Assembly (NCBI GenBank): GCA_963663405.2
Contig: CAXXSM010000149.1
Span: 64,001-128,000 of the forward strand
DNA length: 64,000 nt
Source of the DNA: a bacterium
GTDB lineage: Bacteria; Hinthialibacterota; Hinthialibacteria; Hinthialibacterales; Hinthialibacteraceae
Direction: 5' to 3'
Shown: in pieces, positions 11,415-61,069 of the stretch
Numbering within the stretch: position 1 is the stretch's first letter
How the letters are laid out: every line of letters begins with the position of its first letter
Translations under genes and position numbers: made by a program
Notes under the pieces: model-generated
Seen by the model: only the letters and a program-made list of their open reading frames with translations
Database searches by the model: none
Told to the model about the DNA's origin: nothing

Positions 11415-12737
11415 ATGAGACGATTTTGTGTTGGACTGTTTTCCGTTTTGATATTGATTTGTGCGATGCTCCAAAGCGCTTGGCCGCAACTGGCCGTTCC
11501 AGAATTTGGAGACGCCGTACAGATCACGGATACAGATCTTGCCTCCCTATTAGCGCGAAGTCCTGAAGGTTCTTTCATGTTCGACAGTCATGGAAGGTTG
11601 CATCTGGTTTACACGGAGAAAAATGCGGAGGGCACCAGTTTAGGGAATCCGGGTTTAATGCTGTATTGTAATTTTTTGGATGGGGAATGGTCCGAACCGT
11701 TAGCCATCCGTTCGGATGCAGGAGAAGGAATTCCATTCTGCAATGGAGGAGAACCAGCGCTTTGGGTTCAGGACGATCAAACCGTTCATTTTGTTTTTCA
11801 TGATTACCGGTACAGCACTAGCAGCAGCGGGACGAATCAAGTTGAAGTCTATTACCGTAAGTTACTTCCCTCAGGTGAATTCGAGTCCGATGAAATGCGA
11901 ATCACCGATAATGAGAAGAATTCATGGCGGCCCAAAATCGCGCTCAATCAAGACAACCAAATCGCTCTTGTATGGTATGATTATTCTCAAAGTTCCCTAG
12001 GCGATTTGATGCTTGCTTTGTCCGATTCGAATCAGCAATTTCCAACAGCCACGGATTATGCCAGCCAAGTCGTCGCGAACGCCAATCCAAATGGTGAGGG
12101 AGTTCAAATGACGAATGCTGTGTTTGATCATGAAGGTCGCCTTCATGTAGTGTGGACCGCGGCGGAACTGGATGGTTTTACGTATGTGAATGAACGCTTG
12201 ATATACGGCGTTTTAAACGATCCAGCGAGCCGAACTTTAGACCAAAGGATCGAAGTCAGTTCTCGCGGAACCCTTTCCACTGATCCGGCAAAGATTCAGG
12301 TCGACGATGATACCGTATGGATTGTATGGACAGATATGAAAACACAAATACCCAATATTTTTCTGGCTTCGAAAAAAATTGATCAATCAGAATTCAGCGA
12401 TCCTATACAGATCTCAAACAATGACCTTCCTGATGAGGTTGGTTTTGCTGATTTAGCCATCTCTCCGGATGGAATAATCTATACGGTCTGGACCGATTTC
12501 AGAACCGGTGAAGGTGATATCTATCTTCGAATGTATGATCCCGTTTCCATGATCCTTTCAGAGATCACTCAGATCACGACCGATGATTTCAATGTAGATG
12601 AAAAACCTGGAATCGCCATCAGTCCTAATGGACAGATCGCGATTCTTTGGGAGAGCAATGTGGAGGGGAGAACCAATTTGATGATGCTCCTAATGGAGTC
12701 CGATACTTCCGTCGGGGATTGGATGCGGTTCGATTAG
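11415..12737 (+). CDS. secreted acidic beta-propeller-like protein with C-terminal W-motif
   Basis: signal peptide; repeated (I/L)x(V/L)VWxD blades (LHLVYTE, VHFVFHD, ALVWYD, HVVWT, WIVWTD, YTVWTD, AILWE); ends DTSVGDWMRFD. Confidence 0.75.
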   Translation: MRRFCVGLFSVLILICAMLQSAWPQLAVPEFGDAVQITDTDLASLLARSPEGSFMFDSHGRLHLVYTEKNAEGTSLGNPGLMLYCNFLDGEWSEPLAIRSDAGEGIPFCNGGEPALWVQDDQTVHFVFHDYRYSTSSSGTNQVEVYYRKLLPSGEFESDEMRITDNEKNSWRPKIALNQDNQIALVWYDYSQSSLGDLMLALSDSNQQFPTATDYASQVVANANPNGEGVQMTNAVFDHEGRLHVVWTAAELDGFTYVNERLIYGVLNDPASRTLDQRIEVSSRGTLSTDPAKIQVDDDTVWIVWTDMKTQIPNIFLASKKIDQSEFSDPIQISNNDLPDEVGFADLAISPDGIIYTVWTDFRTGEGDIYLRMYDPVSMILSEITQITTDDFNVDEKPGIAISPNGQIAILWESNVEGRTNLMMLLMESDTSVGDWMRFD

Positions 12738-12762
12738 TGTGATATAGTACTGAAACTATGGA

Positions 12763-12790
12763 GGGCGGGTTATCTAAAACCCGCCCATTT
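12763..12790 (+). terminator. hairpin, possible intrinsic terminator or processing site
   Basis: GGGCGGGTT-atctaa-AACCCGCCC followed by ATTT. Confidence 0.5.
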
Positions 12791-12798
12791 TATGAAAA

Positions 12799-13347
12799 AT
12801 GATTGAACAATTACAACAAACGGTTTATATCCTCACCAATTCATTATTATGGCCCGTAGTGATTGCGTTGCTGTTCGGTATGGCGCACACTTTGTATTTG
12901 CTGGGCAATCTGTGCGCCGAAGCCTTTCAGCGGCGCGGAAAAGCGGTCGCCGTTGTGAATCCTGATGAGCCGGCGGATCAAATGAAACGGCGCCAGGGAT
13001 TTCTCGAATGGAAAAAACTTTCGACCCTTGATCCGTCCGCGAATCGCTGGCTTTTGCTGGATCGAACGGAAGCGGAACTCAGCCGCCGGGTCGATACCGC
13101 GAGAATCTGGGTGCGTCTCGGTCCCGCTTTGGGATTGGCTGGTACCCTGATCCCGCTGGGAAGCGCGTTGACCGCATTAGCGGCCAATGATTTGCAAATA
13201 CTCTCGCAACGGTTGATTCTAGCGTTTGGAACCACCGTGTTGGGATTGGTCGCAGGAAGTATCGCGTGGATTGTCTCTACGACGCTGGAACGTTGGTACC
13301 GCCTCGATCTGGCGGAAATTCGTCACAGTTTGGAGTCCGAAGAATGA
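12799..13347 (+). CDS. MotA/TolQ/ExbB proton channel family protein (HmuU-like)
   Basis: RLGPALGLAGTLIPLGSAL..LILAFGTTVLGL; three TM segments; next to DUF2149 and CobN. Confidence 0.9.
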   Translation: MIEQLQQTVYILTNSLLWPVVIALLFGMAHTLYLLGNLCAEAFQRRGKAVAVVNPDEPADQMKRRQGFLEWKKLSTLDPSANRWLLLDRTEAELSRRVDTARIWVRLGPALGLAGTLIPLGSALTALAANDLQILSQRLILAFGTTVLGLVAGSIAWIVSTTLERWYRLDLAEIRHSLESEE

Positions 13348-13701
13348 AATCGAAGCCTACGCATTCCGGTCTTGGTTTGTTGAGCGGCAACTCGCCGCGA
13401 TGACGATCCACTTTCCGGTTTGGCCAATCTATTTGACATCGGCATCGTGTTCGCGTTGGGATTCATGGTTTCGTTGATCAGCGCCTTGAATCTGCTCGAA
13501 ATGTTTAATCCTGACTCGAAAGTTACGATTACCACTGAACGGGAAGATGGATTGGAGATCACTGTGCGTGAAGGAAAAAAAACAACCGTGCGCCGATTGA
13601 CGAAGCAAGTCGGCAGCGGTGACGGTATCCGTTTGGGGACGGCGTACCGCTTGGAAGACGGTACGGTTGTGTATGTGCCTGATGGCGAAGAGATCCAATG
13701 A
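13344..13701 (+). CDS. DUF2149 protein (HmuV-like); apparent frameshift near 13384-13398
   Basis: DDDPLSGLANLFDIGIVFALG and GIRLGTAYRLEDGTVVYVP; the ATG at 13344 overlaps the exbB stop but is in a different frame from the conserved body. Confidence 0.8.
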
Positions 13702-16700
13702 AACGGTCTATTATCGGCTTCTTTTTTGTTTCTCTCTTCTTTCTTGTATTCCTCATACTCCTGTTTCAAGATAAAGAGATTCCTGGAGAGCGGATTCGAC
13801 TCTTGTTTCTGGTTTCTGATCCGGGAGCGGAACTCATCACGAAAGCCGTCGATTTGCTCTACCAAGAGTATCCACAATTCGCAAACAGCATCGATGTGCG
13901 TGTTCGCGCTCCCTCTACTACAGCGTTGGATCAACCTCTTCTTCCACACGACATGTTGATCGCCGAGGTGAAAGCCTCTCCCTGGATTATGGATCATGAA
14001 AGCGCTTTATCCGCATATCGTCCTTCTGACTCCTTATCCTCATTTCCCTATAAACGAATCGCTTTGGGACGTCTGGGCCCAGGATTAAGTGAAGAAATGC
14101 TGCCTTCATATGGAATGCGGCGAGATGACCTTTTGGATCGGTATTGGGATAATGGAGCGCCAAGCCAGGTAAAAGAAATGATCACTTATATTATGCGGTC
14201 CTACTTTGGTTATTCTCAACTTCAGGTGGATTCTCCGTCAGACATCATTAAACAGGGATTAATTGTCTTACAGGATCGAGGATATCGAATAGTGCAAAGT
14301 TGGAAGGAGTGGGAAGAAAGATCGAAGCCCAAGAATGATATCCCCAAAGTCGCTGTGTTGGAATACGCCACCCGTGTCCGGCGCGAGACCATTCAGATCC
14401 CACTTTCTATTGCAGCGGAAATTAGAAAACAAGGTATGCAGCCGGCGCTGGTGTTCGCCACAGAAGGCAGTCAAGCTGTTCGAGATTATTTGATTGATGA
14501 AAATGGGAATCCCCGAGTCGACGCTGTCATCTCCATGCATTTTAAATTCACAGACGAGAAGGCGGTCGAAGCGTTAAGCGCTCTCAATGTACCGGTCATC
14601 AACGCTATTCAAGTTTATGGACGAACGGTGGAAGAATGGCGGAATTCAACGCAGGGACTCAGTACGTCAGAAGTCGCATGGCAACTGGCTGTTCCGGAAT
14701 TGGCTGGGCTTTCTCCTCCAAACGTGGTTGGCGGAGTCGATAACAGTCGCAGCAGCATCTCCTACCAGGCGATTCCCGAACGTGTGACGCGAGCGGTTGG
14801 CCGCGCCCGGCAATGGATTGAACTGCAGCGCGCTCCTCCAGAAAAACGCCGAATCGCCATACTGTATTGGAACTATCCACCCGGAAAACAAAATGTCGGC
14901 GCCAGCTACTTGAATGTTGTCCGCAGCATCCCCGTCATGCTTCGTCATCTGCGTGAAGAAGGTTACGATACAGGAATTGTAGATTTAGACGATCCTCGCG
15001 AGATTGAACGGATGATTCTTCAGCGAGGCCGCAATATTGGGAATTGGGCTCCCGGTGAGCTCGATCGCTTGATTGATTCACAAAAAATCGATCTTGTCTC
15101 TGTCACTCAATACAAAAAATGGTTTACTGAACTCCCGCGTGATTTTCAGAAAACAATCATAGACTATTGGGGACCGCCAGAAGACGCTGAAATCATGGCG
15201 AAGACCATCGATGAGGAACAATATTTTATTCTTTCAACCATCCACGTAGGAAATATCGTCTTAATGCCACAACCTGACCGGGCGCGAACGCAAAACCTTG
15301 AGATGCTCTATCAATCGCAGGAACTGCCTCCTCACCATCAATATCTGGCGGCTTATTTATGGCTGCAACATGAATTTAAAGCCCAGGCTGTCGTTCACAC
15401 CGGAACGCATGGCACTCATGAATGGATGTCGGGGAAAGAATCCGGTTTATCCGGAAGCGATCCGGGGGAAGTTCTCGCAGGGACTTTGCCTATTTTGTAT
15501 CCATACATTGTGGATGATGTGGGGGAGGGGATTGTCGCTAAGCGGAGGGGGATGTCCACTGTCATCGACCATCTGACTCCAGCGTTAGGGGAAGGCGGAT
15601 TGTCTCCTGAATTACAAAAATTACTGACTTTGATTCAGGAATGGAGAAGCGCGCAAGGGAAGGATCCTGAATCCGCAAATCAATTCGCCGATGAAATCGA
15701 TCTTGATGTGAAGAAAAGAGGAATACACTTGGACTTGAAAGATCGGGGATGGTCTGAAGATGAAATGTCGAATGTGTCTTCATTTCCAAACCGGGCGTCA
15801 ACATTAGAAGATTATATCAACCAGATTCGAATTCAATCTATTCCTTATGGGTTGCATACATTTGGCGTCTCTCCCGATGGGGAAAAACTGGACAAGTTTA
15901 CTGACCTTATTGTGAAAGGGAACGGAGATGAATATCGAGAAACATATAGAAATAATTTAATTCAATGCGGAACGCAGGAGTTGGTAAGTTTGACAAAAGG
16001 TTTGAACGGCCAATATGTCCGTCCGGGACCGGGAAACGATCCCGTCCGGGATACTTTATCAATCCCGACAGGAAAAAACTTTTATACTTTCGATCCACGA
16101 ATCATTCCCACAGAACAATCGGACGAACTCGGAAAAAAAACTGGCGGAGGAGCTCGTCTCAAACCATCACGCGCAGCATGGAAAATACCCTGAAAAAATC
16201 GCCTTGCAGCTTTGGGGAGTGGAAACCATTCGGCACATGGGTGTGCAGGAAGCGCAAGGATTGGCTTTGATCGGCGTTGAGGTAGAGCGGGATGACCGAG
16301 GCCGGATCAAGGATTTGCATTTGATTCCACGAGAACAGTTAGGCCGCCCCCGCGTCGATGTCGTGTTTCATGCGACGAGTTTGTATAGGGATACATTCCC
16401 CGTGCTTTTCGAACTGATCGATAAAGCCGTCAACTTGGCCGCGTCGGCGCCGGAAGAAGATAATCCTATCCGAAACCACGCTCAAACTTTGGATGAACAA
16501 TTGATTGCGCAAGGCGTTCCTCCAGAACAGGCGCGAATCCGCAGTTTGGTTCGCATCTTTGCGGAACCGACCGGAAAGCACGACAGTAAAATTCACGCGA
16601 TGACCGCTTCCAGCGGAAGTTGGGATCAAGAAGAACAGGTCGGTAATAATTATATTCGACGCATGGGGCATGGTTATGGCGGTGGCGTCTGGGGGCAGCC

Positions 16701-17684
16701 CATGGAGCGTGAGTTTCGCAGCGCCTTGAGTGGAACGGAAGCGATCGTTCATACGCGCGCTTCGAAAATCTATTCGACCTTGGATAACGATGATTATTTT
16801 TCCTATGGTGGAAGTATCGCGTTGGGAGTGAGGACCGTCGACGGTGGTTCCAGCCCTCCATTTTTCGTTACGGATCTGCGAACGCCGGGCCAGGAAAAAC
16901 ACGAAACTCTCGAACGGTTTCTCGGTCAGGAATTCCGTTCGCGCTACCTCAATCCTGAATTCGCCAAAGCGATGATGGAGGAAGGATACGCCGGCGGCCG
17001 TCATGTGTGGAAAGCGGCGGAATATTTATGGGGGTGGCAAGTCGTCTATCCCGAAACTGTTGATGGCGCCAAATGGACAGAATTGTATGAAGTGTGGATG
17101 AAAGATCGCTACGATTTAAAGATGGGTAAATTCTTCGAAGAACACAATCCATACGCCAAACAAGGAATATCCGCCCGCATGTTGGAAACGATCCGAAAGG
17201 CTATTGGGACGCGCCGCAGGAGATCATTGATGATTTAACGAAAATCTATATTGAACAAGTCGCCAAACACGATGTGGCGTGCGATCATCTAACCTGCGAC
17301 AATCCTGATCTTCAAGATTTCATCCGCGAAAAAGCGGAAAAAATACCCTCTCTCGATCCCGCCACTATCGCCGCTTGGATTAAGAATGTGGAAACGGCGA
17401 CTGGAAAAACAATGGATGAAGCGTTGAAAAAACGAATCGCAGACCGGCAAAAGTGGCACAAGCCTCAAGAGATTCAAGAAATGGATCAACCAAAAGAAAA
17501 TGAAGCCAATGCTAACACACCCCAACCAGTGGAAGGATATGTTATGGAAGAAGAGGAATGCACAGCGTCTAAGGACAGCCCATCTCAGAACGATTCGTTT
17601 CGCTTGCTGGATGCTCTTGTTTGTTTCTGTTTGGTCTCTAGTTGGATTGCTGGCGCTTGCAAGTCTTACATACAAATGAAATAA
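13698..17684 (+). pseudogene. CobN/magnesium-chelatase family protein (HmuS/BtuS-like), split by two frameshifts (pseudogene or assembly error)
   Basis: PPHHQYLAAYLWL, HTGTHGTHEWMSGK, IVAKRRG, IPYGLHTFG, PTGKNFY, LWGVETIRH, LGRPRVDV, LDNDDYFSY, RSRYLNP, LWGWQ; shifts at the A8 run 16133-16140 and near 17197 (RKGYW); N- and C-terminal hydrophobic anchors. Confidence 0.85.
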
Positions 17685-36697: not shown

Positions 36698-39388
36698 TTA
36701 ATAAAGCGGCCAATTGCCAATGGGAGTATCTAACTGCATCAATTCGATGACAGCCCATCCCGTTTCGTCGTTTTTATAGGCGTCTGTGATCACGCCGTAA
36801 GCGTTCATGTGCCAATAAGCATAAAATCCATCAGAGGGATCGATCATTTTGAAATCAAAACCGATTATATTGCGGTCGGGTGGATCCAGCGCGACTGATT
36901 TATCTACGATGAATTCCACTACATAACCAGACATATCATCTTTGATGCGCGCTCCATAGTTCATATAGACGCCATTTGTCGTGTAATAAAAACCATCTCC
37001 TTCGATCGGAGTCGCTCCGTTGGGAACGGAACCATCGCCATAGTAGCCATGTCCATCAACGATAACTCCAATCCCAAATCCATACTGGTCTGCTTCTTTT
37101 CGGGTTAAACGTGAAAAATTGCCATCTAAATAAAGAACTGCTGAATCATTATTCCATCCTGTGCTTTGGTCGACAATAATATTAGGATCCAATACATCGG
37201 ATGCGATATAAATGAAATCCTGGTCATGAAGTAGATAGAGAACCGTATGCTGTACTTCAGGTGGATTTGTGTTGCCTGTGAGATGAACGCCAGGAGGTTC
37301 GCCGAATGGATTGTTCGCCGGATCTGGCACATAATTATCAAACATCTCTGTGTAAGCTTGGTCATATTCTCCATCACTGATTAAACCATCAAGAGTAATA
37401 TTGGCGTTTTCAACGAATGGCACACTGAAGATTATTGGTTGAATTTCATAATCACCAGCAATAGGGATTTCATCACCTGATGAATCAACGCTTGTTCCAT
37501 CGAACAATAAGCAAACTTTTTCAAAGCCACTAGCAGCCATATATTCAACATCATAGGACATTTGAGCGCTGCCGCTAAGATCGGATAGGGTCCATTCAAT
37601 CAAATCATCGGTTATAGAGAATTCACCATTGGTGACTGAAATATTCGTTGGAGTCACACCATCAGGTATGATTTCTTTAATGACTCCATTTATGGGAGAA
37701 TCTCCTGAAGAAACAGCATTGAGAATAATGTTTTCAATCACGCCATTTTCTGATGAATCATAATATGATACTGGAATTTCACGTGAAACATATAGATCAT
37801 ATTGAATGATTTCTACATCCGTGAAATCAGCAAAGCTGACATAATCCGGACCATTCCATGAAGTGACGCCAAGACCTACATAAACAGGATCTACTAAATT
37901 AAGTATATGGGTTTTAGCCAATTCTGTTTTTTCACCAGTTGAATAGTCCATGTAATAAACAGATACTACATCCCCTACTCGAAGGATTTCGATATCCCCG
38001 CCATGAACATCCACGGAAACATTTCCTACATTGTCCGCTTCTGTATCCGCCACTTTTTTTCTGGATTGCATTCGTAAATTATTGTTAGAAAGAAGTTGAG
38101 CGGAAGTATATACAGCGTCTGGCTCTAAGGAATCCCGGATAAACAATCCGGCGCGGGCATTGGCGCCGTCTCCAGATGCGAAATCTAAAAGTACATTGGC
38201 TTTCAACCGGAAGGGACCATTCATCTCATTAAATAGAAAATACATGTTGTCCGTACTCTCGATGCTTCCCCCTCCTGCGCTTAACTCATATCTACCATTT
38301 TCATATATGGGATCCAATCCTTGCAAGTCGGCGTTCCCAAGGAGTATTTGATGTTCAAAATCTCCCAAACCACCGGGTAACACGGCTTTTGTAAAATCGC
38401 CTAATATGGGAAGTTCACCGATTGTTCCGTATATACTCACCTGTTGATTGGAAATTATATCGACATTTTGAGGAATTAATTCGTAACTGACAGTAGTCAT
38501 TGAATCTGTCAAATTCCAAGTAATGGATGAGTCTGATAGAACACCACCATCACTTATATTCGATGTATCCCACCCATCGGGGATCATTTCTGTCAAAGTA
38601 GAGGAGGCTGGATTCGCAATATCGATGGATATTAGCGAAGGTTTTCCATTTTGGAATACTTCATCTTCGATCGTGCGCCATGCGATTGGAGATTGGAATT
38701 CATCGATAATGACATCCGTAATTTCTCCCACAGCTAAGAAATCGTCTTGTGAGTGACTGGTTATAGCGAATCCATAGGCTAATGTTTCTTCCATAGGCAA
38801 TACCATGGAATGACCTAACATCCAATTTTGACCATCGGTGGAAAATTCTGCAAATAACCAATCTTTTTCCGCCACCCGAGTAAGACGAAGCCACATCGAA
38901 CCACCATCAAGTGGAACAATATTTCCATCCTGATCTTGGAAGCGAGTGCGATCCACGCCAGGTGTTCCATCTAATTCCATACGCCATTGTGCGCTGGAGT
39001 ACTCCCATGTGCCTTTAGCCAAGGCGCCATAATACACTCCACCCGGTTCTTGGGGATGCTGTCGAATGATCGGACCGAATTTTGTCCAAGCTTCCGCTCC
39101 AGGATCGTTCCAAGTTACTTTTCCTGAAATGAAGTAACTCCCACTTCTTTCAGTGTAAGCAAAGAATCCTTCATCCTGGTTGTTCCAAATGTCACGGCCA
39201 TTTCCATAAATTGTGTAAATCGCGTCACGGCCAGAACCTTCAACAGTGATTTCTCCATCCGTTTTGTTTGTGTTTTCTTCCAATGTCCAATCTGCGGATT
39301 GGTCGAATAATCCAACGGCTCCGGAATTTTGGATAAAAATGAATAGTGCCAATAAAACAGTAGTGAAAAACAGTGATAGATATTTCAT
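36698..39388 (-). CDS. large secreted acidic multidomain protein (2 ConA-like + 2 Ig-like + CBM9-like) with C-terminal W-motif
   Basis: signal peptide; paired TLTEMIPDGW..ITWNL / VIKEIIPDGV..IEWTL; ITLDGLISDGEY..FIYIASDVLD..GYVVEF..IGFDF; ends DTPIGNWPLY. Confidence 0.75.
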   Translation of the reverse strand: MKYLSLFFTTVLLALFIFIQNSGAVGLFDQSADWTLEENTNKTDGEITVEGSGRDAIYTIYGNGRDIWNNQDEGFFAYTERSGSYFISGKVTWNDPGAEAWTKFGPIIRQHPQEPGGVYYGALAKGTWEYSSAQWRMELDGTPGVDRTRFQDQDGNIVPLDGGSMWLRLTRVAEKDWLFAEFSTDGQNWMLGHSMVLPMEETLAYGFAITSHSQDDFLAVGEITDVIIDEFQSPIAWRTIEDEVFQNGKPSLISIDIANPASSTLTEMIPDGWDTSNISDGGVLSDSSITWNLTDSMTTVSYELIPQNVDIISNQQVSIYGTIGELPILGDFTKAVLPGGLGDFEHQILLGNADLQGLDPIYENGRYELSAGGGSIESTDNMYFLFNEMNGPFRLKANVLLDFASGDGANARAGLFIRDSLEPDAVYTSAQLLSNNNLRMQSRKKVADTEADNVGNVSVDVHGGDIEILRVGDVVSVYYMDYSTGEKTELAKTHILNLVDPVYVGLGVTSWNGPDYVSFADFTDVEIIQYDLYVSREIPVSYYDSSENGVIENIILNAVSSGDSPINGVIKEIIPDGVTPTNISVTNGEFSITDDLIEWTLSDLSGSAQMSYDVEYMAASGFEKVCLLFDGTSVDSSGDEIPIAGDYEIQPIIFSVPFVENANITLDGLISDGEYDQAYTEMFDNYVPDPANNPFGEPPGVHLTGNTNPPEVQHTVLYLLHDQDFIYIASDVLDPNIIVDQSTGWNNDSAVLYLDGNFSRLTRKEADQYGFGIGVIVDGHGYYGDGSVPNGATPIEGDGFYYTTNGVYMNYGARIKDDMSGYVVEFIVDKSVALDPPDRNIIGFDFKMIDPSDGFYAYWHMNAYGVITDAYKNDETGWAVIELMQLDTPIGNWPLY

Positions 39389-39581: not shown

Positions 39582-40235
39582 ATGGGGATTATTAAAAATG
39601 GATTCACGTTAATTGAATTGTTAATCGTCGTTGCGATTATAGGTATTTTGGCGGCCATTGCTGTTCCCAATTTTATGAATGCGCAGGTTCGGGCCAAAAT
39701 AGCCAGATCTCAAGCGGATATGCGTTCGATCGGAACGGCGATTGAGTCATTTCGCATTGATAATGGCGCTTTATTGGTGGATTTTTATGATGAACAAGAT
39801 ACTGCGGCAATACAACGTTTACAAAAATGGGGATTATGTTCTGTTAACAATTTTGATGACGCCGTTAGGAATCAACGTTGCATATATGCTAATTTAACTT
39901 CTCCTGTAGCTTTTATTTCTGCAATACCTGATGATCCTTTTTTTGGTAAAATTAGCAACAATGTGACGGATCGTTTAATAGAGGCGTTTGCGGGTACTTA
40001 TATTTATTATGATAATGAAGCAGCCATCCCTGGAGATGACCATTATGTTCCGCTGTTGAGCGGTGATAATGGTAAGCCCTTCAATGTTAATCCTTTAGGA
40101 TTGAATCAATGGGTATTGTTGGGAATTGGTCCTGATTCGAGTATTGGCGACACAGATCTCAACAGAAGGGGAATCCCTTACGATGCGACAAATGGTCTTC
40201 GAAGTGAAGGCGATTTGATGACGAGAAGCGGGTGA
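39582..40235 (+). CDS. prepilin-type N-terminal cleavage/methylation protein (GspG-like pseudopilin)
   Basis: NG|FTLIELLIVVAIIGILAAIAVPNF; LTSPVAFI..DPF; YDATNGLRSEGDL. Confidence 0.92.
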   Translation: MGIIKNGFTLIELLIVVAIIGILAAIAVPNFMNAQVRAKIARSQADMRSIGTAIESFRIDNGALLVDFYDEQDTAAIQRLQKWGLCSVNNFDDAVRNQRCIYANLTSPVAFISAIPDDPFFGKISNNVTDRLIEAFAGTYIYYDNEAAIPGDDHYVPLLSGDNGKPFNVNPLGLNQWVLLGIGPDSSIGDTDLNRRGIPYDATNGLRSEGDLMTRSG

Positions 40236-42229: not shown

Positions 42230-42315
42230 CACATATACTTGCTCTTTCTTTTTTATCAAAAGAGAAAAGTATCTATCGACTTACAAGTAAGAATTTTATG
42301 GGGGGAACTTACAAA

Positions 42316-43566: not shown

Positions 43567-43596
43567 TCTAAAAAAACAAGAATAGGAGATAGAAAA

Positions 43597-44964: not shown

Positions 44965-44966
44965 TC

Positions 44967-46157: not shown

Positions 46158-46160
46158 TAA

Positions 46161-49263: not shown

Positions 49264-51294
49264 TCAATACAAACTCCATTCACGAACGGGTGTTTCTTCG
49301 GTATAGATTTTGACGTTATCGATGAAATAATCACCACCGCTATTGGTGACATTCACTAAAAAGAGATTGTCAATACTGGATAATTGGTTGGTCTGCCAGA
49401 ACATCGCATCCGTTTCATATTGAACTAAAGTTGAAAAGGTGAGATCCCCTTCGTCTCCCTGCCAGAATTCATACGTGTTGGTTTTTGGATCAGCGATGAT
49501 TCGAATGGGGTACCAATGTTCGACTCCACTGTCCGGATCAGACGCTAGAATGGGAGTGGTTCTTAATTCTCCCGCATCTTCCACTCCATCCTTGTTGGTA
49601 TCTCCAATAAAGTTCCATTGAGCGCCATCGTAATAATTCGCCACGCCCGGTTCCAATTGTCCCCAAACCACATGCCCTCCTAACGTGGAATCTTGACGAA
49701 TGATCACTTGACAGGCTCGCGCTCCAGCGGCGCCGGTAACGGTTGACGCCATCAGAAAATCAATCGTTACGGGTTCGGTTTGACTGCCGAAATCGATAGA
49801 CAAGTTATCGACGCCGCTTCTAACCTTCAATGATTTATCGCCCACGGCGATAATCTCTTCTAATTCTCCTCCACCCGCGACCCGCTCGCTAGCTTCCGCT
49901 CCCCAAGCCCCTTCAAAATCCTGCTCGATAACGGTCTGACCGGATTTCGTAACAATGGATACGTTATCAACAAAGAAGTCACCCATCCCTCGTTCTTTGT
50001 TTTGAAATTGAATTCCATCAATGGAATCCAATAATCGCCAAAACCATAAATCGTCCCCATATTGAGTGAGATTTTCAAAATTCAAGTCGTTGGCAGGTCC
50101 CATAAAAAAATCAAAACTATGATTCGCAATATCAAGGTCCAATTGAACCGGGTACCATTTGGCCGATGTGGGATCTTCTGGATCCGTTATTTCAATAAGC
50201 GGTGGCCATGTTTCATCCCCGTCTTCCACAAGATTTTGATTGGTATCCCCGATTTGACGCCACGCTGTGCCATCGTAAAAGTTACTCGATCCCGGTTCGG
50301 TCTCTCCCCAACAAATGAACGTGACGATATTGGAGCCGGTATTCCCACCGTTCAACGTCCACACTTGCGCCGCGCGCTGATTTTTATAACCGCCCAAGGT
50401 TGTAAATGAAATTAGAAAACGAAACGTGAAATTTTCCAGGATTGGATCGAAATACGCGTAAGCGCCATCGATATCTTTGAGAAGCATCAATGAATGCTCA
50501 CCGATCGCAATCAATGAATCGTCACGTTCGGGAATGCCTTCAAAATCATTTTCGAATACCACGGCGCCGTCATGAGATATTTCCAAATTGTCTATAAAAT
50601 CACCGCTTGATGATGGATTAAAATAGAAACGATTGATTTCGGGAGGGAAATCCACGGTATAGAGGTCTTCGCCGTATAATTTCAGTGTGGAAAAAGACAT
50701 ATCGTTGGGGGCGCCTTGCCAATAATCGAAAATGGCTTCATCAATATTAATAACCAATTGTATAGGAATCCATTGCGCTTGATCGGGTTGATCCGGATCG
50801 GAGACCGGAAGAGCGGGAGGCCATTCCTCGCCATCATTTTCTATACCATCGAAGTTCGTATCCCCAATTTGCACCCAGCCGTCTAAATCCTGATACGCCG
50901 GTAATCCTTCGATCACATTACTCCATCGAATATCCGAAGCCACAATCGCGGTTTCTCCGGAAATTCCCTGGAGATAGACTCTTCCACCAGGGGAGTCTGG
51001 ATTCGAGGCGACAGTCGACGAAATCAAAAAACGTATGGTAATCGAACCGGAGACGGGAATAAAATCCTGACTATAATAGGTATTTCTCGAATATTCATCG
51101 ATCGCCAAGGCCGTCGGCGCGCGTTCCAATTCCGGTAGGGATTGAAATCCGGCTTGCGGACCTAACGAACTTAGATCATCGAAATCCTCTTCATATAAAA
51201 TATCAGTCTGCCCTGCGATCGCGCCGATGCTTGACAAAACACAACATACAAAAACGATACCCCATCTTTTTGTCTTGGTATACTTTTTCATCAT
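49264..51294 (-). CDS. secreted acidic protein with three tandem beta-sandwich repeats and C-terminal W-motif
   Basis: signal peptide; three IGDTN..E-D/GE repeats; ends ETPVREWSLY. Confidence 0.75.
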   Translation of the reverse strand: MMKKYTKTKRWGIVFVCCVLSSIGAIAGQTDILYEEDFDDLSSLGPQAGFQSLPELERAPTALAIDEYSRNTYYSQDFIPVSGSITIRFLISSTVASNPDSPGGRVYLQGISGETAIVASDIRWSNVIEGLPAYQDLDGWVQIGDTNFDGIENDGEEWPPALPVSDPDQPDQAQWIPIQLVINIDEAIFDYWQGAPNDMSFSTLKLYGEDLYTVDFPPEINRFYFNPSSSGDFIDNLEISHDGAVVFENDFEGIPERDDSLIAIGEHSLMLLKDIDGAYAYFDPILENFTFRFLISFTTLGGYKNQRAAQVWTLNGGNTGSNIVTFICWGETEPGSSNFYDGTAWRQIGDTNQNLVEDGDETWPPLIEITDPEDPTSAKWYPVQLDLDIANHSFDFFMGPANDLNFENLTQYGDDLWFWRLLDSIDGIQFQNKERGMGDFFVDNVSIVTKSGQTVIEQDFEGAWGAEASERVAGGGELEEIIAVGDKSLKVRSGVDNLSIDFGSQTEPVTIDFLMASTVTGAAGARACQVIIRQDSTLGGHVVWGQLEPGVANYYDGAQWNFIGDTNKDGVEDAGELRTTPILASDPDSGVEHWYPIRIIADPKTNTYEFWQGDEGDLTFSTLVQYETDAMFWQTNQLSSIDNLFLVNVTNSGGDYFIDNVKIYTEETPVREWSLY

Positions 51295-51416: not shown

Positions 51417-52001
51417 TCAAGGACCAAAGCGATAAATATCCCCATCGCTGTTCAATCCATTGCTAGAGTCGAACCATTTCATAAAGTCGGATCCCCCCGC
51501 TCCCGGATCGGCTTCATAATCCCGATCCGGCGCAGCGCCCATCAGCACCCATCGCCCCCGCCGCTCTTGTTCTTCCGGCATATAAGCGAACCGGCGCGAT
51601 GAGAGTTTGATATTGTCCGTGGTTTCAGGATCCCATAGTGGATACGCGTTCGACATGTACGTATCATCGATATTGGTTCGAAACGGGTCCAAAGGAACAC
51701 TGTTCATATAACTGACCGGTGAGGTCATTTTTGCCAGTCTTCCATAACGCCAATCCCGTGTGCTCGAAGGAGCCGCCGGGGGATACATATTGTTGTCCAA
51801 TCGATACATTTCCAGCGCGCTCCCCAACGATCGCAGATCGGCTTCACAACGAGCGATAAGCGCCCGAACCCGCGCATTGATAAAATTGGGCACAGCAATG
51901 GCGGCCAGAATGCCAATGATCGCGACGACGATAAGCAATTCAATTAAGGTAAAACCGCGAAAAGGAGTTTTTTGATTGTTTGTCGATTTTTTTTCATTCA
52001 T
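51417..52001 (-). CDS. prepilin-type N-terminal cleavage/methylation protein (GspG-like pseudopilin)
   Basis: RG|FTLIELLIVVAIIGILAAIAVPNF; MTSPVSYM..DPF; FDSSNGLNSDGDI. Confidence 0.92.
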   Translation of the reverse strand: MNEKKSTNNQKTPFRGFTLIELLIVVAIIGILAAIAVPNFINARVRALIARCEADLRSLGSALEMYRLDNNMYPPAAPSSTRDWRYGRLAKMTSPVSYMNSVPLDPFRTNIDDTYMSNAYPLWDPETTDNIKLSSRRFAYMPEEQERRGRWVLMGAAPDRDYEADPGAGGSDFMKWFDSSNGLNSDGDIYRFGP

Positions 52002-53675: not shown

Positions 53676-53702
53676 TTTTCGAATAGTAAGGACAAAATTG
53701 TT

Positions 53703-54422: not shown

Positions 54423-55171
54423 CCGATCTTTCGGGACAAGTGGCATTGGTAACCGGAGCGTCCCGCGGATTGGGAAAAGGGATCGCGCTGGTATTGGCCG
54501 AAGAGGGCGCGAACATCGTGGTTAATTATCGATCCTCGAAAAAAGAAGCGGAAGAAACAGCCGAAATGATCCGCTCCTTAGGACGTGAAGCGCTTCCGAT
54601 TCAAGCCGATGTCAGTAACGCCGAAGACGTCGCAAAAATGTTTATTGAAATTCAATCCTGTTTCCAAAAAATTGATATCCTAGTCAATAACGCTGGCACA
54701 ACTCAAGCGAAAGATATTTTTGAAATAAACGAGCAAGATTGGGATTTTATTCTCGATACCAATATGAAAAGTTGTTATCTTTGTTCAAAAGAAGCGTTCA
54801 AAATGATGAAACATCGCAAGCGGGGAAGAATCATCAATATCAGTTCCGTCGTAGGCGAGCAGGGAGCGCTGTACGGTCACGTCCATTACGCAACCACCAA
54901 AAGCGGGATGCTGGGCTTCACCAAAACCTTGGCGCGAACCGGCGCGCCATTCGGAATCACCGTCAACGCAATCGCGCCGGGGATCATTGAAACGGAATTG
55001 CTAATTCAAACCCATGGCCGGGAAAAAGTGGATCAACTTTCTAAACAAGTTCCCTTAGGATTGGGAACTCCACGAGACGTCGGATGCGCCGCCGCCTTTC
55101 TCTGTGGAGAAGGCGCGCGTTATATAACCGGAGCGACAATCGATGTGAACGGCGGAATGTATATGCGGTAA
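54419..55171 (+). CDS. SDR family oxidoreductase
   Basis: TGASRGLG, NNAG, YATTK, VNAIAPG, IDVNGG. Confidence 0.9.
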   Translation: MTDLSGQVALVTGASRGLGKGIALVLAEEGANIVVNYRSSKKEAEETAEMIRSLGREALPIQADVSNAEDVAKMFIEIQSCFQKIDILVNNAGTTQAKDIFEINEQDWDFILDTNMKSCYLCSKEAFKMMKHRKRGRIINISSVVGEQGALYGHVHYATTKSGMLGFTKTLARTGAPFGITVNAIAPGIIETELLIQTHGREKVDQLSKQVPLGLGTPRDVGCAAAFLCGEGARYITGATIDVNGGMYMR

Positions 55172-55201
55172 TTATCCAAGTTATAAAGGAATTATGAAGT
55201 A

Positions 55202-56371
55202 ATGAAAATCACGGATATCAAAACATTTATTTGTCATGCCTATCGAACCAATTGGGTGTTTGTCAAAGTTTACACCGATTCTGGATTGTATGGAGTTGGT
55301 GAAGCTACGTTAGAAATGCGTGAACTGACTGTGATGGAAGCAATCAGTGAAATTAAAAGGGGATTGGTTGGGAAAGATCCTGAGAATATAGAAGGTCTTT
55401 GGCTTACAATTTACCGCGATACCTATTGGCGGGGCGGGCCGGTCCTCATGTCGGCTTTGGCGGGTGTTGAAATGGCGTTGTGGGATATAAAGGGCAAGAG
55501 TTTAGGCGTACCGGTTTATCAATTATTGGGTGGGAAAGTACGGGATAAAGCCCCATGTTACGCGAATGGTTGGTTTGCTGGAGCGCGTACTCCGCAAAAA
55601 TTTGCCCAAAAAGCGAAAGAGACGATACAACTCGGTTTTCAAGCCTTGAAATGGGATCCATTTGGTTCCGCTTATCTTAATTTATCCGCAAGAGAATTTC
55701 AGGAAGCCCTTCGCTGTATCGCCGCTATACGGGAAGCCGTTGGCAGCGAGGTGGATTTGATTATCGAAGGACATGGACGTTTTAATCTCCCTACAGCAAA
55801 ACGTTTGGGACATGCCATGAAGGAGTTTCAAATCCTTTGGTTTGAAGAACCATTATGCCCGGAGAGTCATGAAAGTTTAGCCGACTTGCGTCAACAGATA
55901 CCGATTCCGGTCGCCGCGGGAGAGCGGATTTACAGCCGATGGGATTTTTATGATTTTCTTACCAAAAAAAGCGCAGATATTATCCAACCGGACGTCTCGC
56001 ATGTGGGGGGAATTATGGAAATGAAGAAAATCGCCGCGATGGCGGAATGTTGTCAAATCCCTTTATGTCCCCATAATCCAAGCGGCCCTGTCGCTCATGC
56101 GGCGACTCTGCATCTTGCCGCATGTATAACCAATTTCTATTTGTTGGAAACCATGAGCGCCGATGTGGATTACCGGAATCAAATTTGTACTGAAAATCTA
56201 CTCTTTGAAGATGGAATGATCCATATCAGTAATGAACCCGGATTAGGAATTGACATTAATGAAGACGCCATACTGAACTACCCATATAAACCTTGCGAAT
56301 TGAGACATTACAATGGAGATTTAACCGAAATTCGTCCACGCAGCGCGAAGATGTATATGCAGAGAATTTGA
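55202..56371 (+). CDS. dgoD: galactonate dehydratase-like (mandelate racemase subgroup)
   Basis: GVGEATLE, YWRGGPVLMSALAGVEMALWDIKGK, YANGW, LKWDPFG, EGHGRF, WFEEP, AAGER, QPDVSHVGG, PHNPSGP. Confidence 0.75.
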   Translation: MKITDIKTFICHAYRTNWVFVKVYTDSGLYGVGEATLEMRELTVMEAISEIKRGLVGKDPENIEGLWLTIYRDTYWRGGPVLMSALAGVEMALWDIKGKSLGVPVYQLLGGKVRDKAPCYANGWFAGARTPQKFAQKAKETIQLGFQALKWDPFGSAYLNLSAREFQEALRCIAAIREAVGSEVDLIIEGHGRFNLPTAKRLGHAMKEFQILWFEEPLCPESHESLADLRQQIPIPVAAGERIYSRWDFYDFLTKKSADIIQPDVSHVGGIMEMKKIAAMAECCQIPLCPHNPSGPVAHAATLHLAACITNFYLLETMSADVDYRNQICTENLLFEDGMIHISNEPGLGIDINEDAILNYPYKPCELRHYNGDLTEIRPRSAKMYMQRI

Positions 56372-56430
56372 TGTAAATACAATTATGACTGAATGTATAA
56401 ATTACCATTCATTGATTGAAAGGAAAATGC

Positions 56431-58056
56431 ATGATGTTATCAATTAAACAAATAACTTGCTTACTGATATTTTCTTGTTTTACTATGATCGCTACTCTGT
56501 CTGTGACAAGTGGTGACTTGATAGCAACTGATGAAAATGTAAAGAAAAACATTTCTCCAATTGCGCTGATTCAAGAGAATAATCCTGCGCAAGGAAAAGA
56601 GATTGACTCATCGTCTAATAGTCAAGTTAAAGTTACCAGCATATCCCGAACAATTGACGCTTCTAAATATTCTAATCGATTTCCCGATCTAGCCGCGTAC
56701 CGGAATACTTCAATACAAAAAGCGCCTGCGCCTGCGCTTGCTGAATTAAGCGCGAACGAGTTTGGCATAGCGAAAATCACCCGGTGTTGGTTAAACCTCG
56801 ATGAAATGTGGGATTATCGAACGCGAGAATATAACTACAACTATACAATTGGAGTTCACAAGTACGATGATGTCTCGGAGAAACACGAGGAATCTTGGGG
56901 ATGGGTCACAGAGACCAATGTGCCATTTTATGATTACTTGAGCGCATTCAGTAAGTATAGTGATGAAATCATGTTGACCATCCGGCGATATGAACGGGAT
57001 ATTTTGGATGGGAAACTTGACGTTACGATGAATGACTGGAAAAGAATTTTTAAAAACGCTGTAATTCATTATAAAGGAATTTGTTCCAATCTTCGTTATA
57101 TTGAAGTATGCAACGAATATGCTATTAAAGGTTTTATCGGATGCACGGCGGATGAATACTATCAGTTTTACAAACTCGCATATGAAGCCGTTAATGAAGC
57201 CAACGCAGAGATGAACTTAAAGGACGATAACCGAATTCTGGTGGGAGGTCCTGTGGTGACCGGCGACATTATTAAGAAACTAAATCTCTTTTTTGAAAAT
57301 TATAGCAGGGACACATCGGCAAATAAGAAAATGGATTTTGTTTCGTGGCATGAATATAGCAAAAGCTATGACGCAATCGCTCATCGAGAAAAACAGGTTC
57401 GAGAGATGATGGATCAACATGGTCTCAAAGAAGACATCCCCTTATTTATCAGCGAACACGATCCCTATCATCCTCCGGCGGGGAGTAGAGAGTACAATCT
57501 TATCAATGGCGCGGGATTAGTTAAGTCACTTTATTTTACGAATTATTTCAGTCCCGGAATTAAAATCATGCCTTGGGTACAATATCACAACGCTGAGATT
57601 CAAACACGGTTCATGTGGTTTGGTGGTCCCAACGAACCGGATACTAAAACTAAAGAATTGCGAATGCTGCCGGCTGGTTGCTCAATGAAGTTTCTTAGCA
57701 TGCACAAAGATTGGGAAATAGAAGTTGACAATGCGCTCGATAAAGATGAGATTGTGTTGGCTTCGATCCAAAATGACGGAATCGTCGTTCATGTGGTCAA
57801 TTATGACAAGCCGCGAGCTGTACAAATCCGGCTGGACAATATCCCAAAATCGTTTTTAAATTTGAAGGATGGAAAAATAAAAGCAGTCAAATATCTCATC
57901 GATCAGCAGCACTGTAACTGCGTGGCCAATCCCGACTATTCTGGCGGAATTGAAAAGGTAGGAGATGAGTGGATAGAATTGAACGGAGGTTCAATCACAC
58001 TCTCACACTCCAAACTTACAAAAAACGGAATACTGTTGTGGGAATTGATCCCATGA
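56431..58056 (+). CDS. secreted clan GH-A glycoside hydrolase (GH39-like)
   Basis: signal peptide; YIEVCNEY (acid/base), VGGP, DFVSWHEY, LFISE (nucleophile). Confidence 0.7.
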   Translation: MMLSIKQITCLLIFSCFTMIATLSVTSGDLIATDENVKKNISPIALIQENNPAQGKEIDSSSNSQVKVTSISRTIDASKYSNRFPDLAAYRNTSIQKAPAPALAELSANEFGIAKITRCWLNLDEMWDYRTREYNYNYTIGVHKYDDVSEKHEESWGWVTETNVPFYDYLSAFSKYSDEIMLTIRRYERDILDGKLDVTMNDWKRIFKNAVIHYKGICSNLRYIEVCNEYAIKGFIGCTADEYYQFYKLAYEAVNEANAEMNLKDDNRILVGGPVVTGDIIKKLNLFFENYSRDTSANKKMDFVSWHEYSKSYDAIAHREKQVREMMDQHGLKEDIPLFISEHDPYHPPAGSREYNLINGAGLVKSLYFTNYFSPGIKIMPWVQYHNAEIQTRFMWFGGPNEPDTKTKELRMLPAGCSMKFLSMHKDWEIEVDNALDKDEIVLASIQNDGIVVHVVNYDKPRAVQIRLDNIPKSFLNLKDGKIKAVKYLIDQQHCNCVANPDYSGGIEKVGDEWIELNGGSITLSHSKLTKNGILLWELIP

Positions 58057-59029: not shown

Positions 59030-59584
59030 ATGTCAAACAACAATCAAGGTATGATCGAACGGTTGGCGCGAGTGGAACGGAAAAACCGTCAACTAGGTAA
59101 AGGACTCGGGATCGCTCTGATCGTGTTGTGTTCGTTGGCGTTCATGGCCATGTCCGACGCGCAAACCGAGAAAGTCCTCAAAGTCAAAGGCATTGCGATT
59201 GTCGATGAAGCGGGAGAAACCGTGGCCTATTTTGGTGTCGACAAAGAGGGAGTCACATCTCTTTCATTTCTCGAAAAGGATGGATTCAGGCAGGAATTGA
59301 GCAATAGAGGAATCGGTATTTATTCTGAAAACCATACCATTGGAATTGGATTTAGCGATGCGGGATTTGGGATTGGCGTTTACGATAAGAATAATGTTGG
59401 CCGAGTCGCTTTAGGCGGTTCACTGACGAGAGAAGTGTATGGAGTAGCCGTCAGCGACAAGAACGACAAAAGGCGAGTCGCTTTGGGGCAAGGGAGCGAT
59501 GAGGTTTTTGGATTCAGCGTGATGGATGCGGAAGGGAAGCCGCACTATTCCGTTCCCGAAAATTTTGACTTGTCTAAAAAATAA
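59030..59584 (+). CDS. hypothetical membrane-anchored protein with Gly-rich beta repeats
   Basis: ERLARVERKNRQL + TM helix; repeated D(K)N...RVALG; AGGAG RBS. Confidence 0.7.
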   Translation: MSNNNQGMIERLARVERKNRQLGKGLGIALIVLCSLAFMAMSDAQTEKVLKVKGIAIVDEAGETVAYFGVDKEGVTSLSFLEKDGFRQELSNRGIGIYSENHTIGIGFSDAGFGIGVYDKNNVGRVALGGSLTREVYGVAVSDKNDKRRVALGQGSDEVFGFSVMDAEGKPHYSVPENFDLSKK

Positions 59585-59596
59585 TGATTCACTGCG

Positions 59597-59635
59597 GTGT
59601 AAGGTGGGATTTCATTCGAACATCCCACCTTACAC
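59597..59635. repeat. 14-bp perfect inverted repeat (REP-like or terminator)
   Basis: GTGTAAGGTGGGAT-11 nt-ATCCCACCTTACAC. Confidence 0.7.
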
Positions 59636-59671
59636 ACTACATCACACACGATTTTTAAAGGAGATTCAATC

Positions 59672-61069
59672 ATGAAAAACAGAACCAAAGTTATTACGCT
59701 TTTATCCATTTTGTCTTTCAGCGTCACCTCTGTGTCACTCACGCAGGAGTCAAATAGTACAAATACCATCGGCATTTTTGAGGATCATCATGATTGGGTG
59801 GCTGGCATGGCTCCCGGTGAGGCCGCATACGATCCAAATACGGGCGAGTATATGATACAAGGATCGAGCGCTCTCTATATTGATGAAGAAAATCGTGAAA
59901 TTGGTATGGGTGGACACGTCGCCTGTTCATGGATTTGTAATGATAGCAATTTTGAGTTAGAAGCCCATGTCACAGCGGAATTTGTGTCCAGTGGGAGTAT
60001 TTTTTCCAGCGCGGTTCTTTTTGTCAGTGAATATGATCCACCGGAAACGATTGATTTATACAACTGTGGCGCGGCGTTTGGAATTGGAGTTACTTCCAAA
60101 TTCAACAGTCTTATCTGTTATTACCAGGAAAAGAGAGGCCCCTATGATATGTCGGTTATTGATGATGAAGTGTATCACGAGGGGCGTCTCAAGTTAGTTA
60201 AAGATGGAAACACTATACAAGCCTTCTTCTTTGATCCATTTTTGGAAGAATGGGTGTTATACGGCGAACACGAAATGGAATTTAATACTCCTGAATTGAC
60301 TGTTGGTTTAGTCGCTAGTTCAGGGAATTCTGTCAATTTATACACTATTGGACGTTTTACTGAGGTAAAGTTGACGATCGATGACACCCCCGGTGGATCG
60401 GATATTCCATCATCGGTTTCAGAACCAGTCGGTATGTTCGAAAACCATCGGGATGTGTTTCCCGGCCTCATGGCCGCCGGTGAAACCAGTTATGATCCAG
60501 ACACTGACGAATATGTAATTATTGGATCATCTTACAATAATAATTATGGGCATATCGCCTATTCAACATTCAATAGTCAGGATGATTTCATATTCGAAGG
60601 TGAAATCCTTTCAGAGCATATCGACAGTGACGATGAATGGGGTGGAGCCAGCTTATACATTCAAGAAGGGGATCCTGCCAGCACGCTCGATGACATCGAG
60701 AATTACAGCGCTTTTTATTGTGTCGGCATAGCTGCCAAAACTCAACTCATTTCAGTGTGGTATCAAGAGATTCAAGGGCCTTACGCTGTTTCGTATCCGG
60801 CGAATATCGGCTTGGAATGCAATCACGATGGACGTATAAAAATTGTAAAAGAGGGTGAGATTTTCAGTTCCTATTTTTTTGATCCGGATTTGGATGATTG
60901 GATTTTGCGAGATGAACGGATTCTTCTATTTTCGGAACCCACGATGGTGATTGGTATTTTTGTAGGTTCTAGTATCGACAATAAATACTCAAAGGGAACA
61001 TTTAGAAATTTAAAACTCACTGTTAATGGTATACAAAGCGGTGTTGAAGATTGGACAATGTATAGATAA
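59672..61069 (+). CDS. secreted acidic protein with two ConA-like domains and C-terminal W-motif
   Basis: signal peptide; IGIFEDHHDW..GEAAYDPNTGEY / VGMFENHRDV..GETSYDPDTDEY; ends QSGVEDWTMYR. Confidence 0.75.
   Translation: MKNRTKVITLLSILSFSVTSVSLTQESNSTNTIGIFEDHHDWVAGMAPGEAAYDPNTGEYMIQGSSALYIDEENREIGMGGHVACSWICNDSNFELEAHVTAEFVSSGSIFSSAVLFVSEYDPPETIDLYNCGAAFGIGVTSKFNSLICYYQEKRGPYDMSVIDDEVYHEGRLKLVKDGNTIQAFFFDPFLEEWVLYGEHEMEFNTPELTVGLVASSGNSVNLYTIGRFTEVKLTIDDTPGGSDIPSSVSEPVGMFENHRDVFPGLMAAGETSYDPDTDEYVIIGSSYNNNYGHIAYSTFNSQDDFIFEGEILSEHIDSDDEWGGASLYIQEGDPASTLDDIENYSAFYCVGIAAKTQLISVWYQEIQGPYAVSYPANIGLECNHDGRIKIVKEGEIFSSYFFDPDLDDWILRDERILLFSEPTMVIGIFVGSSIDNKYSKGTFRNLKLTVNGIQSGVEDWTMYR

Follow-up and report, generated by a model that had tools for sequence, protein, structure and literature searches.

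The tail in the window

The window, a stretch of 64,000 nucleotides (positions 64,001 to 128,000 of contig CAXXSM010000149.1, assembly GCA_963663405.2) from a bacterium of the lineage Hinthialibacterota, carries four genes whose exported products end in the same short C-terminal peptide, referred to here as the tail. These products, which we call cargo proteins, and their tails are located as follows; the scores come from the tail matrix described in the next section.

11415..12737, + strand: cargo 1, 440 residues; signal peptide, BNR/sialidase-like beta-propeller (BNR_4 match below cut-off), tail
12705..12737, + strand: tail of cargo 1, TSVGDWMRFD and stop; matrix score 16.2
36698..39388, - strand: cargo 2, 896 residues; signal peptide, DUF1349-like beta-sandwich repeats, C-terminal CBM9-like domain, tail
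36698..36727, - strand: tail of cargo 2, TPIGNWPLY and stop; matrix score 20.2
49264..51294, - strand: cargo 3, 676 residues; signal peptide, internally repeated protein without a known family, tail
49264..49293, - strand: tail of cargo 3, TPVREWSLY and stop; matrix score 20.1
59672..61069, + strand: cargo 4, 465 residues; signal peptide, one domain present twice in tandem, tail
61037..61069, + strand: tail of cargo 4, SGVEDWTMYR and stop; matrix score 16.1

The original prediction had described the four peptides, and all of them lie where it had placed them, each directly before a stop codon. Their scores range from 16.1 to 20.2, while the next best of the 44 window open reading frames (ORFs) scored reaches -2.5. 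Cargo 2, in which Lys and Arg together make up 4.7% of residues, matches DUF1349 and CBM9_1 below the respective cut-offs. Cargo 3 has no Pfam match, contains an internal repeat of 33% identity, and finds only hypothetical proteins in the ESM Atlas. Cargo 4 matches no Pfam or NCBIfam model, its internal repeat shows 35% identity, and its paralogues occur elsewhere in the source genome. The four proteins had been called unrelated, which stands insofar as their pre-tail domains fall into different clusters, but not fully, since cargos 2 and 4 match each other weakly (22%, E 0.006-0.011) and each also matches one common paralogue.

An AlphaFold (AF2) model of cargo 1, built from 19 sequences, reached a pLDDT (per-residue model confidence) of 85 and resembles glycoside-hydrolase and lyase propellers. 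The last strand of the fold ends at residue 427 and residues 430-440 score below 50, so that the tail lies outside the folded body; the tail Trp is invariant across the 19 aligned sequences. Single-sequence folding of cargo 4 gave a pLDDT of 31 and no usable model.

Detection of the tail in the source genome

The ORFs of the source genome (G000; 8.44 Mb, 82% complete) were called with a simple script, which gave 7,264 after overlap removal, of which 6,063 have at least 120 residues. An iterated, genome-trained matrix of nine positions yielded the consensus [TSV]-[SAP]-V-x-[DN]-W-x-L-[YFH]. The termini of 214 of the 6,063 ORFs score at least 7 bits on this matrix, against 1.6 expected from internal pseudo-termini, and the tail thus marks about 3.5% of the ORFs examined. 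The pattern is therefore real and more widespread than first claimed. The consensus of the original prediction, [TS]-[PSG]-[VI]-x-[DEN]-W-x-x-[YF]-x(0,1)-stop, captures a genuine pattern but is too narrow, as it catches 25 of 18,962 raw ORFs.

The signal is tied to the protein terminus. W-x-x-[YF] stands at the exact end of 130 of the 6,063 ORFs and one residue earlier in 32, against a background of 2-18 (mean about 8) at offsets 3-30. In this loosely chosen set, Thr, Ser or Val at Trp-5 and Val or Ile at Trp-3 emerged unselected. Tails are 9-11 residues long, and the proteins stop at or just after the aromatic residue.

A longer variant of the tail, with two extra residues before Trp, was also observed (G000 C16:19401, C115:15134, C143:30507 and C150:490). 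Its carriers are related repeat proteins, two of which have an N-terminal membrane domain ahead of them.

Proteins that carry the tail

The tail is a property of exported proteins of a particular kind. Among the tagged ORFs, 170 of 214 carry a signal peptide, compared with 2,093 of the 5,849 others (odds ratio 6.9, p=2e-37; signal peptides were called by a hydropathy heuristic and not by SignalP), and many of the tagged ORFs without a called signal peptide resemble truncated starts. Candidates for other export classes almost never carry it: only 2 of 227 twin-arginine translocation (Tat)-like and 4 of 109 lipoprotein-like proteins are tagged, and on a closer look one of these Tat calls and the majority of the lipoprotein calls seem false. 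Tagged proteins contain 5.8% Lys and Arg, versus 9.9% in other signal-peptide proteins. Of 276 exported proteins poor in these residues, 132 are tagged, and several more have decayed tails.

The proteins in front of the tail are diverse. The 100 residues preceding it form 107 BLAST clusters among the 214 ORFs, the largest with 18 members, and the whole proteins form 80 clusters. An NCBIfam scan of 71 of the 214 found esterases, a sulfatase, a subtilase, leucine-rich repeat proteins, SnoaL-like proteins and propellers, most having no family; some cargo reaches 2,600-3,300 residues. Untagged sulfatase and FGE-domain paralogues stop at the position where the tail begins. Three homologue searches showed the tail to be kept in 16 of 20, 25 of 26 and 6 of 7 homologues, and those lacking it were either truncated or decayed, except for one distant protein, which bears a domain of T9SS (type IX secretion system) type. 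A clean exchange of the tail for a T9SS domain among homologues did not emerge: two of the searches gave almost only tagged proteins of the same lineage, and the sole T9SS-bearing homologue from these two spans 26% of the query.

No Pfam or NCBIfam model recurred on the 54 tails scanned, so the tail does not belong to an annotated family at this level. Nor is it the last strand of a shared domain, given the 107 pre-tail families and its place outside the fold of cargo 1. Together with the enrichment in signal-peptide proteins, these results bear out the earlier proposal of a lineage-specific C-terminal sorting or attachment tag. The tail is, very probably, some kind of sorting or recognition signal, one that is real and has apparently not been described.

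Other recurring C-terminal modules were seen on untagged exported proteins of the source genome: a helical domain on about ten of those listed, an unnamed beta-rich domain on a further ten or so, and dockerin-like ends.

Comparison with known sorting systems

Among described systems, the closest is the T9SS, with its type A C-terminal domain (TIGR04183) and the peptidase PorU (NF033707, PF01364, PDB 6ZA2). Both pair a Sec signal with a C-terminal signal on unrelated cargo, both have a site of the form X/(GSA)(VLI)-x-[DN] where the C-terminal signal starts, and both are accompanied by conserved C25 peptidases with His and Cys (a PorU-type Arg is present here in one paralogue, C25-A). The signal studied here differs in that it has nine residues, ends in W-x-L-[YFH] and contains no folded domain, whereas the shortest T9SS signals measure 43-55 residues, as given in PMC11969387; the peptidases here are two large paralogues (about 1,250-1,900 residues) with CARDB domains and without a sorting signal of their own. 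Neither a T9SS signal domain nor canonical PorV or SprA was found in the genomes tested. TIGR04183 was not detected in G000 or G035, compared with 58-150 matches in four positive-control genomes; PorV (PF19572) was found in none of 35 genomes of OLB16, the name with which PMC9324843 equates Hinthialibacterota, while the control was positive; and SprA/Sov gave nothing over the cut-off in the four genomes searched (G000, G003, G012, G149), with 867 bits in the control G048.

Two divergent PorV/PorQ-like barrels occur in the source genome (61 and 36 bits, cut-off 90), each following an exported protein with a Pro/Thr linker:

G000 C125:21540-22661 (L339:11541-12662): PorV/PorQ-like barrel
G000 C35:15992-17102: PorV/PorQ-like barrel

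Relatives of these barrels were found in 26 of 35 OLB16 genomes, and NF033709 in none of the five Sumerlaeota genomes tested; the barrel was therefore dropped as a tight co-distribution partner of the tail. The neighbour of the C125 barrel additionally contains cohesin and dockerin domains.

The YLP-box (NCBIfam NF050076 sort_motif_YLP and NF053834 ultrashort_CTERM) is likewise an ultrashort putative sorting motif of 10-11 positions. Its models, however, had no match on the four window tails or on 54 others; they matched unrelated LPLV sites, which read [IV]-[YF]-L-P-L-V here, and none of these is a tail of this family. Identity with the YLP-box was rejected on this basis. LPXTG/sortase, PEP-CTERM/exosortase, GlyGly-CTERM/rhombosortase and MYXO-CTERM/myxosortase resemble the present case in that many unrelated exported proteins share one C-terminal signal, and in both situations one or two enzymes probably serve all of them. 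In contrast to these tripartite signals, the tail has neither a transmembrane helix nor a basic cluster, and the protein stops at the motif. The beta-signal of outer-membrane proteins, read by BamA, shares the C-terminal aromatic residue; the cargo here nevertheless consists not of barrels but of soluble proteins, namely propellers, sandwiches and enzymes, the NCBIfam scan of 71 tagged proteins returned no barrel family, and the only available model places the tail beyond the fold.

Likeness of the tail to PorU cleavage sites

Table 2 in PMC4560394 lists 17 mapped PorU sites, for which the rule X/(GSA)(VLI) is given. By our own counts, P1 is Thr in 9 of these, P1' is G/S/A in 16, P2' is V/L/I in 14, P4' is D/E/N/Q in 12 and P5' is V/I in 15. 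When the 214 tails are set in the same register, P1 is Thr in 46% and Ser in 26%, P1' is G/S/A in 110, P2' is V/L/I in 189, P4' is D/E/N/Q in 132, and P5' is Trp in 93%. Both P1' and P2' fit X/(GSA)(VLI) in 96 of the 214 tails, which is a match at the level of sequence only. The linkers preceding 26 T9SS-type domains (two of them not true signal domains) score a mean of 5.3 on the first five positions of the tail, compared with 2.8 for 389 windows from protein bodies (p=7e-5), a null drawn from bodies and not from other linkers, with linker composition unmatched.

C25 peptidases as candidate reader

The Peptidase_C25 domain was found in 35 of 35 OLB16 genomes, 73 of 75 Sumerlaeota genomes and none of 14 control genomes. 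OLB16 genomes have two conserved exported paralogues, C25-A of about 1,250-1,400 residues and C25-B of about 1,600-1,900 residues, which in the source genome are located as follows.

G000 C61:17775-21656: C25-A
G000 C89:70234-75689: C25-B, split over two frames in this assembly

Both paralogues match the PorU model NF033707, with 186 bits for C25-A and 222 for C25-B, in each case below its cut-off. C25-A can be aligned to the PorU structure 6ZA2, and its His812, Cys851 and Arg888 are invariant in eight orthologues. Arg888 aligns with an arginine that PMC4560394 describes as conserved in PorU and missing from gingipains. C25-B retains His and Cys. A midpoint-rooted FastTree phylogeny was built from 123 catalytic domains, with 14 of 55 outside sequences retained. 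In it, the large enzymes of OLB16 and Sumerlaeota stand apart (support 0.88) from these 14 C25 domains, which come from other phyla, and the partner of C25-B is a Sumerlaeota type of about 1,820 residues (support 0.97). Being conserved across both phyla in which the tail is used, the C25 relatives are a plausible candidate for its reader.

C25 genes adjoin glycosyltransferases in G003, G028 and G001, an arrangement that is not general and that fits a glycan anchor. A prediction of the complex between residues 330-1290 of C25-A and a 30-residue tail alignment gave a score of 0.10 against a mark of 0.32, and it was used neither for nor against the proposal.

Distribution of the tail and of C25-B across genomes

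Other genomes were searched with a codon pattern for the tail, which lets TGG pass as a stop, and with the reversed pattern as control. The tail was present in 35 of 35 OLB16 genomes, with 69 matches in G000, 24-82 in its family and 4-44 elsewhere, while the reversed pattern gave 0-6 matches in the same genomes. At least three matches to the form beginning with Thr or Ser were found in 51 of 75 Sumerlaeota genomes. An Asn-initial form ends real ORFs in the Sumerlaeota genomes G091, G094, G095, G096, G099 and G101, so that several genomes of the range G084-G101 use this form. A further scan covered 50 genomes picked for their C25 homologues, with six loci left out. In this set, matches rose above the rest in G000 (56), G035 (22), G038 (15) and G039 (13), the last two of which cluster with OLB16 on the C25 tree; the remaining 46 genomes, from other phyla, had 0-6 matches, which is the control level.

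Within Sumerlaeota, one C25 paralogue goes with the Thr/Ser form of the tail. The C25-B orthologue of the 1,820-residue type was found in 48 of 75 genomes, and at least three Thr/Ser-form tails occur in 46 of these 48, versus 5 of the 27 genomes without it. No C25-B orthologue turned up in G091-G101; the tails there are Asn-initial, and most of these genomes have two copies of the other paralogue. Five genomes without any enzyme of the OLB16/Sumerlaeota C25 group have 0-3 Thr/Ser matches.

Proposed processing of the tail and points against it

Taken together, the tail is most likely processed much like the PorU step of type IX secretion while not being part of the T9SS. In its fuller form, as a PorU-type signal for cutting and anchoring that is independent of the T9SS, this reading is put forward tentatively, with somewhat less than even confidence, as we infer the cleavage, the anchor and the export route. 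Sec would carry cargo over the inner membrane. Recognition would fall to the W-x-L-[YFH]-COOH half, in place of the T9SS domain of 70-80 residues, and a PorU-like C25 cysteine peptidase/transpeptidase would cut after the first tail residue, as in T/S-V-x-D-W. The resulting acyl-enzyme could then either release cargo or pass it on to an amine group on a glycan or lipid of the envelope. For the crossing of the outer membrane, a type II secretion system (T2SS) would be the likeliest route.

More speculatively, and with perhaps one chance in three by our reckoning, the two phyla may possess a complete PorU-type sortase pathway that stands alone. The C25 pair of Hinthialibacterota and Sumerlaeota would read the tail and anchor hundreds of proteins covalently, exit would proceed by a route other than the T9SS, probably the T2SS, and P1 would have changed from Thr/Ser to Asn where one paralogue was lost and the other duplicated. 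The tail would then represent a T9SS cleavage site fused straight to a W-x-L-Y recognition end.

Several observations weigh against processing by C25 enzymes. With regard to the site, the match to T9SS-type linkers may come from generic linkers rich in Thr, Ser and Val, and Pro stands at P1' in 39 of 214 tails and in none of the 17 PorU sites. Pro at this position does occur in some T9SS-type linkers, and the accessible text of PMC11969387 reports wider P1' tolerance in another species, with Pro not named. With regard to the enzymes, both paralogues fall far below the PorU model cut-off of 420 bits (186 for C25-A and 222 for C25-B against NF033707), and neither C25-B nor the majority of the Sumerlaeota enzymes has the PorU arginine. 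With 12,148 representatives at E<=0.001, C25 peptidases are so widespread that finding them is, by itself, weak evidence. No consistent linkage joins C25 and cargo genes. The C25 proteins themselves have no tail (0 of 150 representatives), which leaves their own route to the surface unexplained. The association between C25-B and Thr/Ser tails is phylogenetically confounded, as it reflects few clade-level events; most genomes are incomplete, and tail-rich genomes supplied the sequences of the C25-B alignment. Individual genomes also depart from it: G035 (24 tails) and G157 (8) have no C25-B orthologue, and G090 has the orthologue and no Thr/Ser tail.

Alternative explanations

Two alternatives are both judged unlikely. 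According to the first, a T2SS or pseudopilus machine recognises the tail and leaves it uncleaved, the reader being a secretin, GspC or the tip of a pseudopilin. The source genome has nine secretin matches, 111 prepilin-like genes, a Tad cluster and three T2SS-like clusters, and its T2SS genes include GspC/GspM-like ones as well as clusters of pseudopilins, which makes T2SS export plausible. The near absence of the tail from Tat and lipoprotein candidates and the very large size of some cargo agree with such a machine. Three prepilin-type genes lie beside cargo genes of the window and are given as context only; for the first, a link to the tail was not supported.

10699..11409, + strand: prepilin-type gene upstream of cargo 1
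39582..40235, + strand: prepilin-type gene divergent from cargo 2
51417..52001, - strand: prepilin-type gene upstream of cargo 3

Genome-wide, tagged genes adjoin pilins more often than all untagged signal-peptide genes do, a loose control (18 of 214 versus 52 of 1460, p=0.003). This excess disappears against matched controls, namely 408 untagged exported genes that are Tat-type or poor in Lys and Arg (19 of 214 versus 23 of 408, p=0.13; p=0.27 in the other matched comparison), and the orientation of the pilin genes varies. The link to neighbouring pilins proposed earlier was consequently set aside; of the suggestion that a T2SS or pilus machine reads the tail, what stands is that T2SS clusters are present and may export the cargo. 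It speaks against T2SS recognition that the signals known for this system are for the most part conformational, and that the protease-site-like first half of the tail would be left unexplained. A PorU-like C25 peptidase, which the original prediction had not taken into account, is the better lead for a reader than a T2SS or pilus machine, and T2SS recognition can coexist with C25 processing as its export step.

The second alternative, which we rate no higher, is that the tail is a non-covalent docking peptide for a surface scaffold or a membrane-anchored TPR receptor, comparable to a minimal dockerin or to the peroxisomal PTS1. The motif is hydrophobic and short, and its carboxyl end is free (offset 0 in most tails), which would suit this function, and the source genome holds proteins with cohesin and dockerin domains. 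In addition, distant relatives of cargo 1 end in modules that are dockerin-like, PEF-CTERM-like (both labels being our own reading) or of the T9SS type; these relatives are 23-27% identical over part of their length only, and the positional swap of end modules is accordingly loose, which counts against docking. Of 17 Sumerlaeota loci listed, 14 encode a membrane-anchored TPR protein of about 350 residues after the C25-B orthologue, and a gene of this kind (about 350-400 residues) directly follows the C25 gene in L179-L195 and also in L035 and L037. It is a possible receptor or partner of the tail. Against this, a clear orthologue of the TPR protein could not be picked out in the source genome, generic TPR matches being all that was found there, and no repeated receptor domain was identified.

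Considerably less probable is a role in periplasmic quality control, in which the tail would be a degron or stress signal read on mislocalised cargo by a PDZ protease of the Tsp/DegS type. The aromatic end and 11 PDZ matches in the source genome would permit it; PDZ matches, however, are also present in all 14 control genomes. PDZ domains usually read the last three or four residues, so that a nine-residue motif exceeds their usual reach, and the tail is confined to one compositional class of exported proteins. An artefact at the level of DNA (a repeat or cassette site) or of structure (the closing strand of a shared domain) can practically be dismissed: some tails do fall within paralogue families, but all synonymous codons are used and vary freely in the tail DNA of tagged genes, the 60 bases 3' of the stop codons carry at most 0.14 bits per position, by which a repeat or cassette origin was rejected, and the diversity of pre-tail families, the untagged paralogues that stop where the tail starts and its unstructured state in the cargo 1 model argue against a shared strand.

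Significance and relation to the literature

No paper on the tail or on PorU-like enzymes in these phyla was found in a literature search that left subscription journals largely outside its reach. Term look-ups in PMC9324843 and PMC8092238 did not return 'C-terminal', and in bioRxiv 2023.06.07.544157 they returned no C25 or YLP and one irrelevant string match to PorU. PorU is treated within Bacteroidetes only in the part of PMC7323717 that was consulted. What is new here is a candidate reader for the tail. Since the tail marks such a share of ORFs and recurs across two uncultured phyla, it can serve immediately as a predictor of their surface and secreted proteomes. If the C25 paralogues are its readers, they would constitute a sortase system of bacteria with two membranes, with a signal that lacks both a membrane anchor and a folded domain. 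Processing of the PorU type apart from type IX secretion would also bear on how that system was assembled and, should the stand-alone pathway hold, PorU chemistry would be a module separable from type IX secretion and possibly older than it. With a substrate of nine residues, the enzyme would lend itself to simple assays on synthetic peptides and would be a candidate tool for protein ligation.

Further observations

In three genomes, C25-A has as its convergent neighbour a gene for a multi-pass membrane protein of 540-550 residues without a Pfam match. C25 proteins of another kind, which have BACON, beta-helix or fn3 domains, themselves end in a peptide resembling the tail and, by virtue of that end, are probably cargo and not readers.

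L021:11662-13281: multi-pass membrane protein convergent with C25-A
L025:11838-13478: multi-pass membrane protein convergent with C25-A
L031:6842-8497: multi-pass membrane protein convergent with C25-A
L196:3072-8444 (G150): C25 protein ending in a tail-like peptide
L197:3625-8808 (G089): C25 protein ending in a tail-like peptide

Secretin genes of the source genome were also seen in clusters of unnamed exported proteins (G000 C18:25076-35127 and C38:18629-28524), and these two clusters are unlike T2SS, Tad or type IV pilus loci.

Within the window, an IS1634-family transposase (34722-36458) adjoins cargo 2, and a pyruvate formate-lyase (PFL)-like glycyl-radical enzyme is encoded together with its radical-SAM activase (2235-5387). 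A CobN/magnesium chelatase gene (13698-17238) is split across two overlapping frames of 831 and 407 residues; many frame breaks in the source genome, this one included, are probably assembly errors. Two similar sugar-acid gene sets (40451-46916 and 52392-58056), each beside a prepilin-type gene, contain a GntR regulator, a major facilitator superfamily transporter, an enolase-family dehydratase, a short-chain dehydrogenase/reductase and a glycoside hydrolase.

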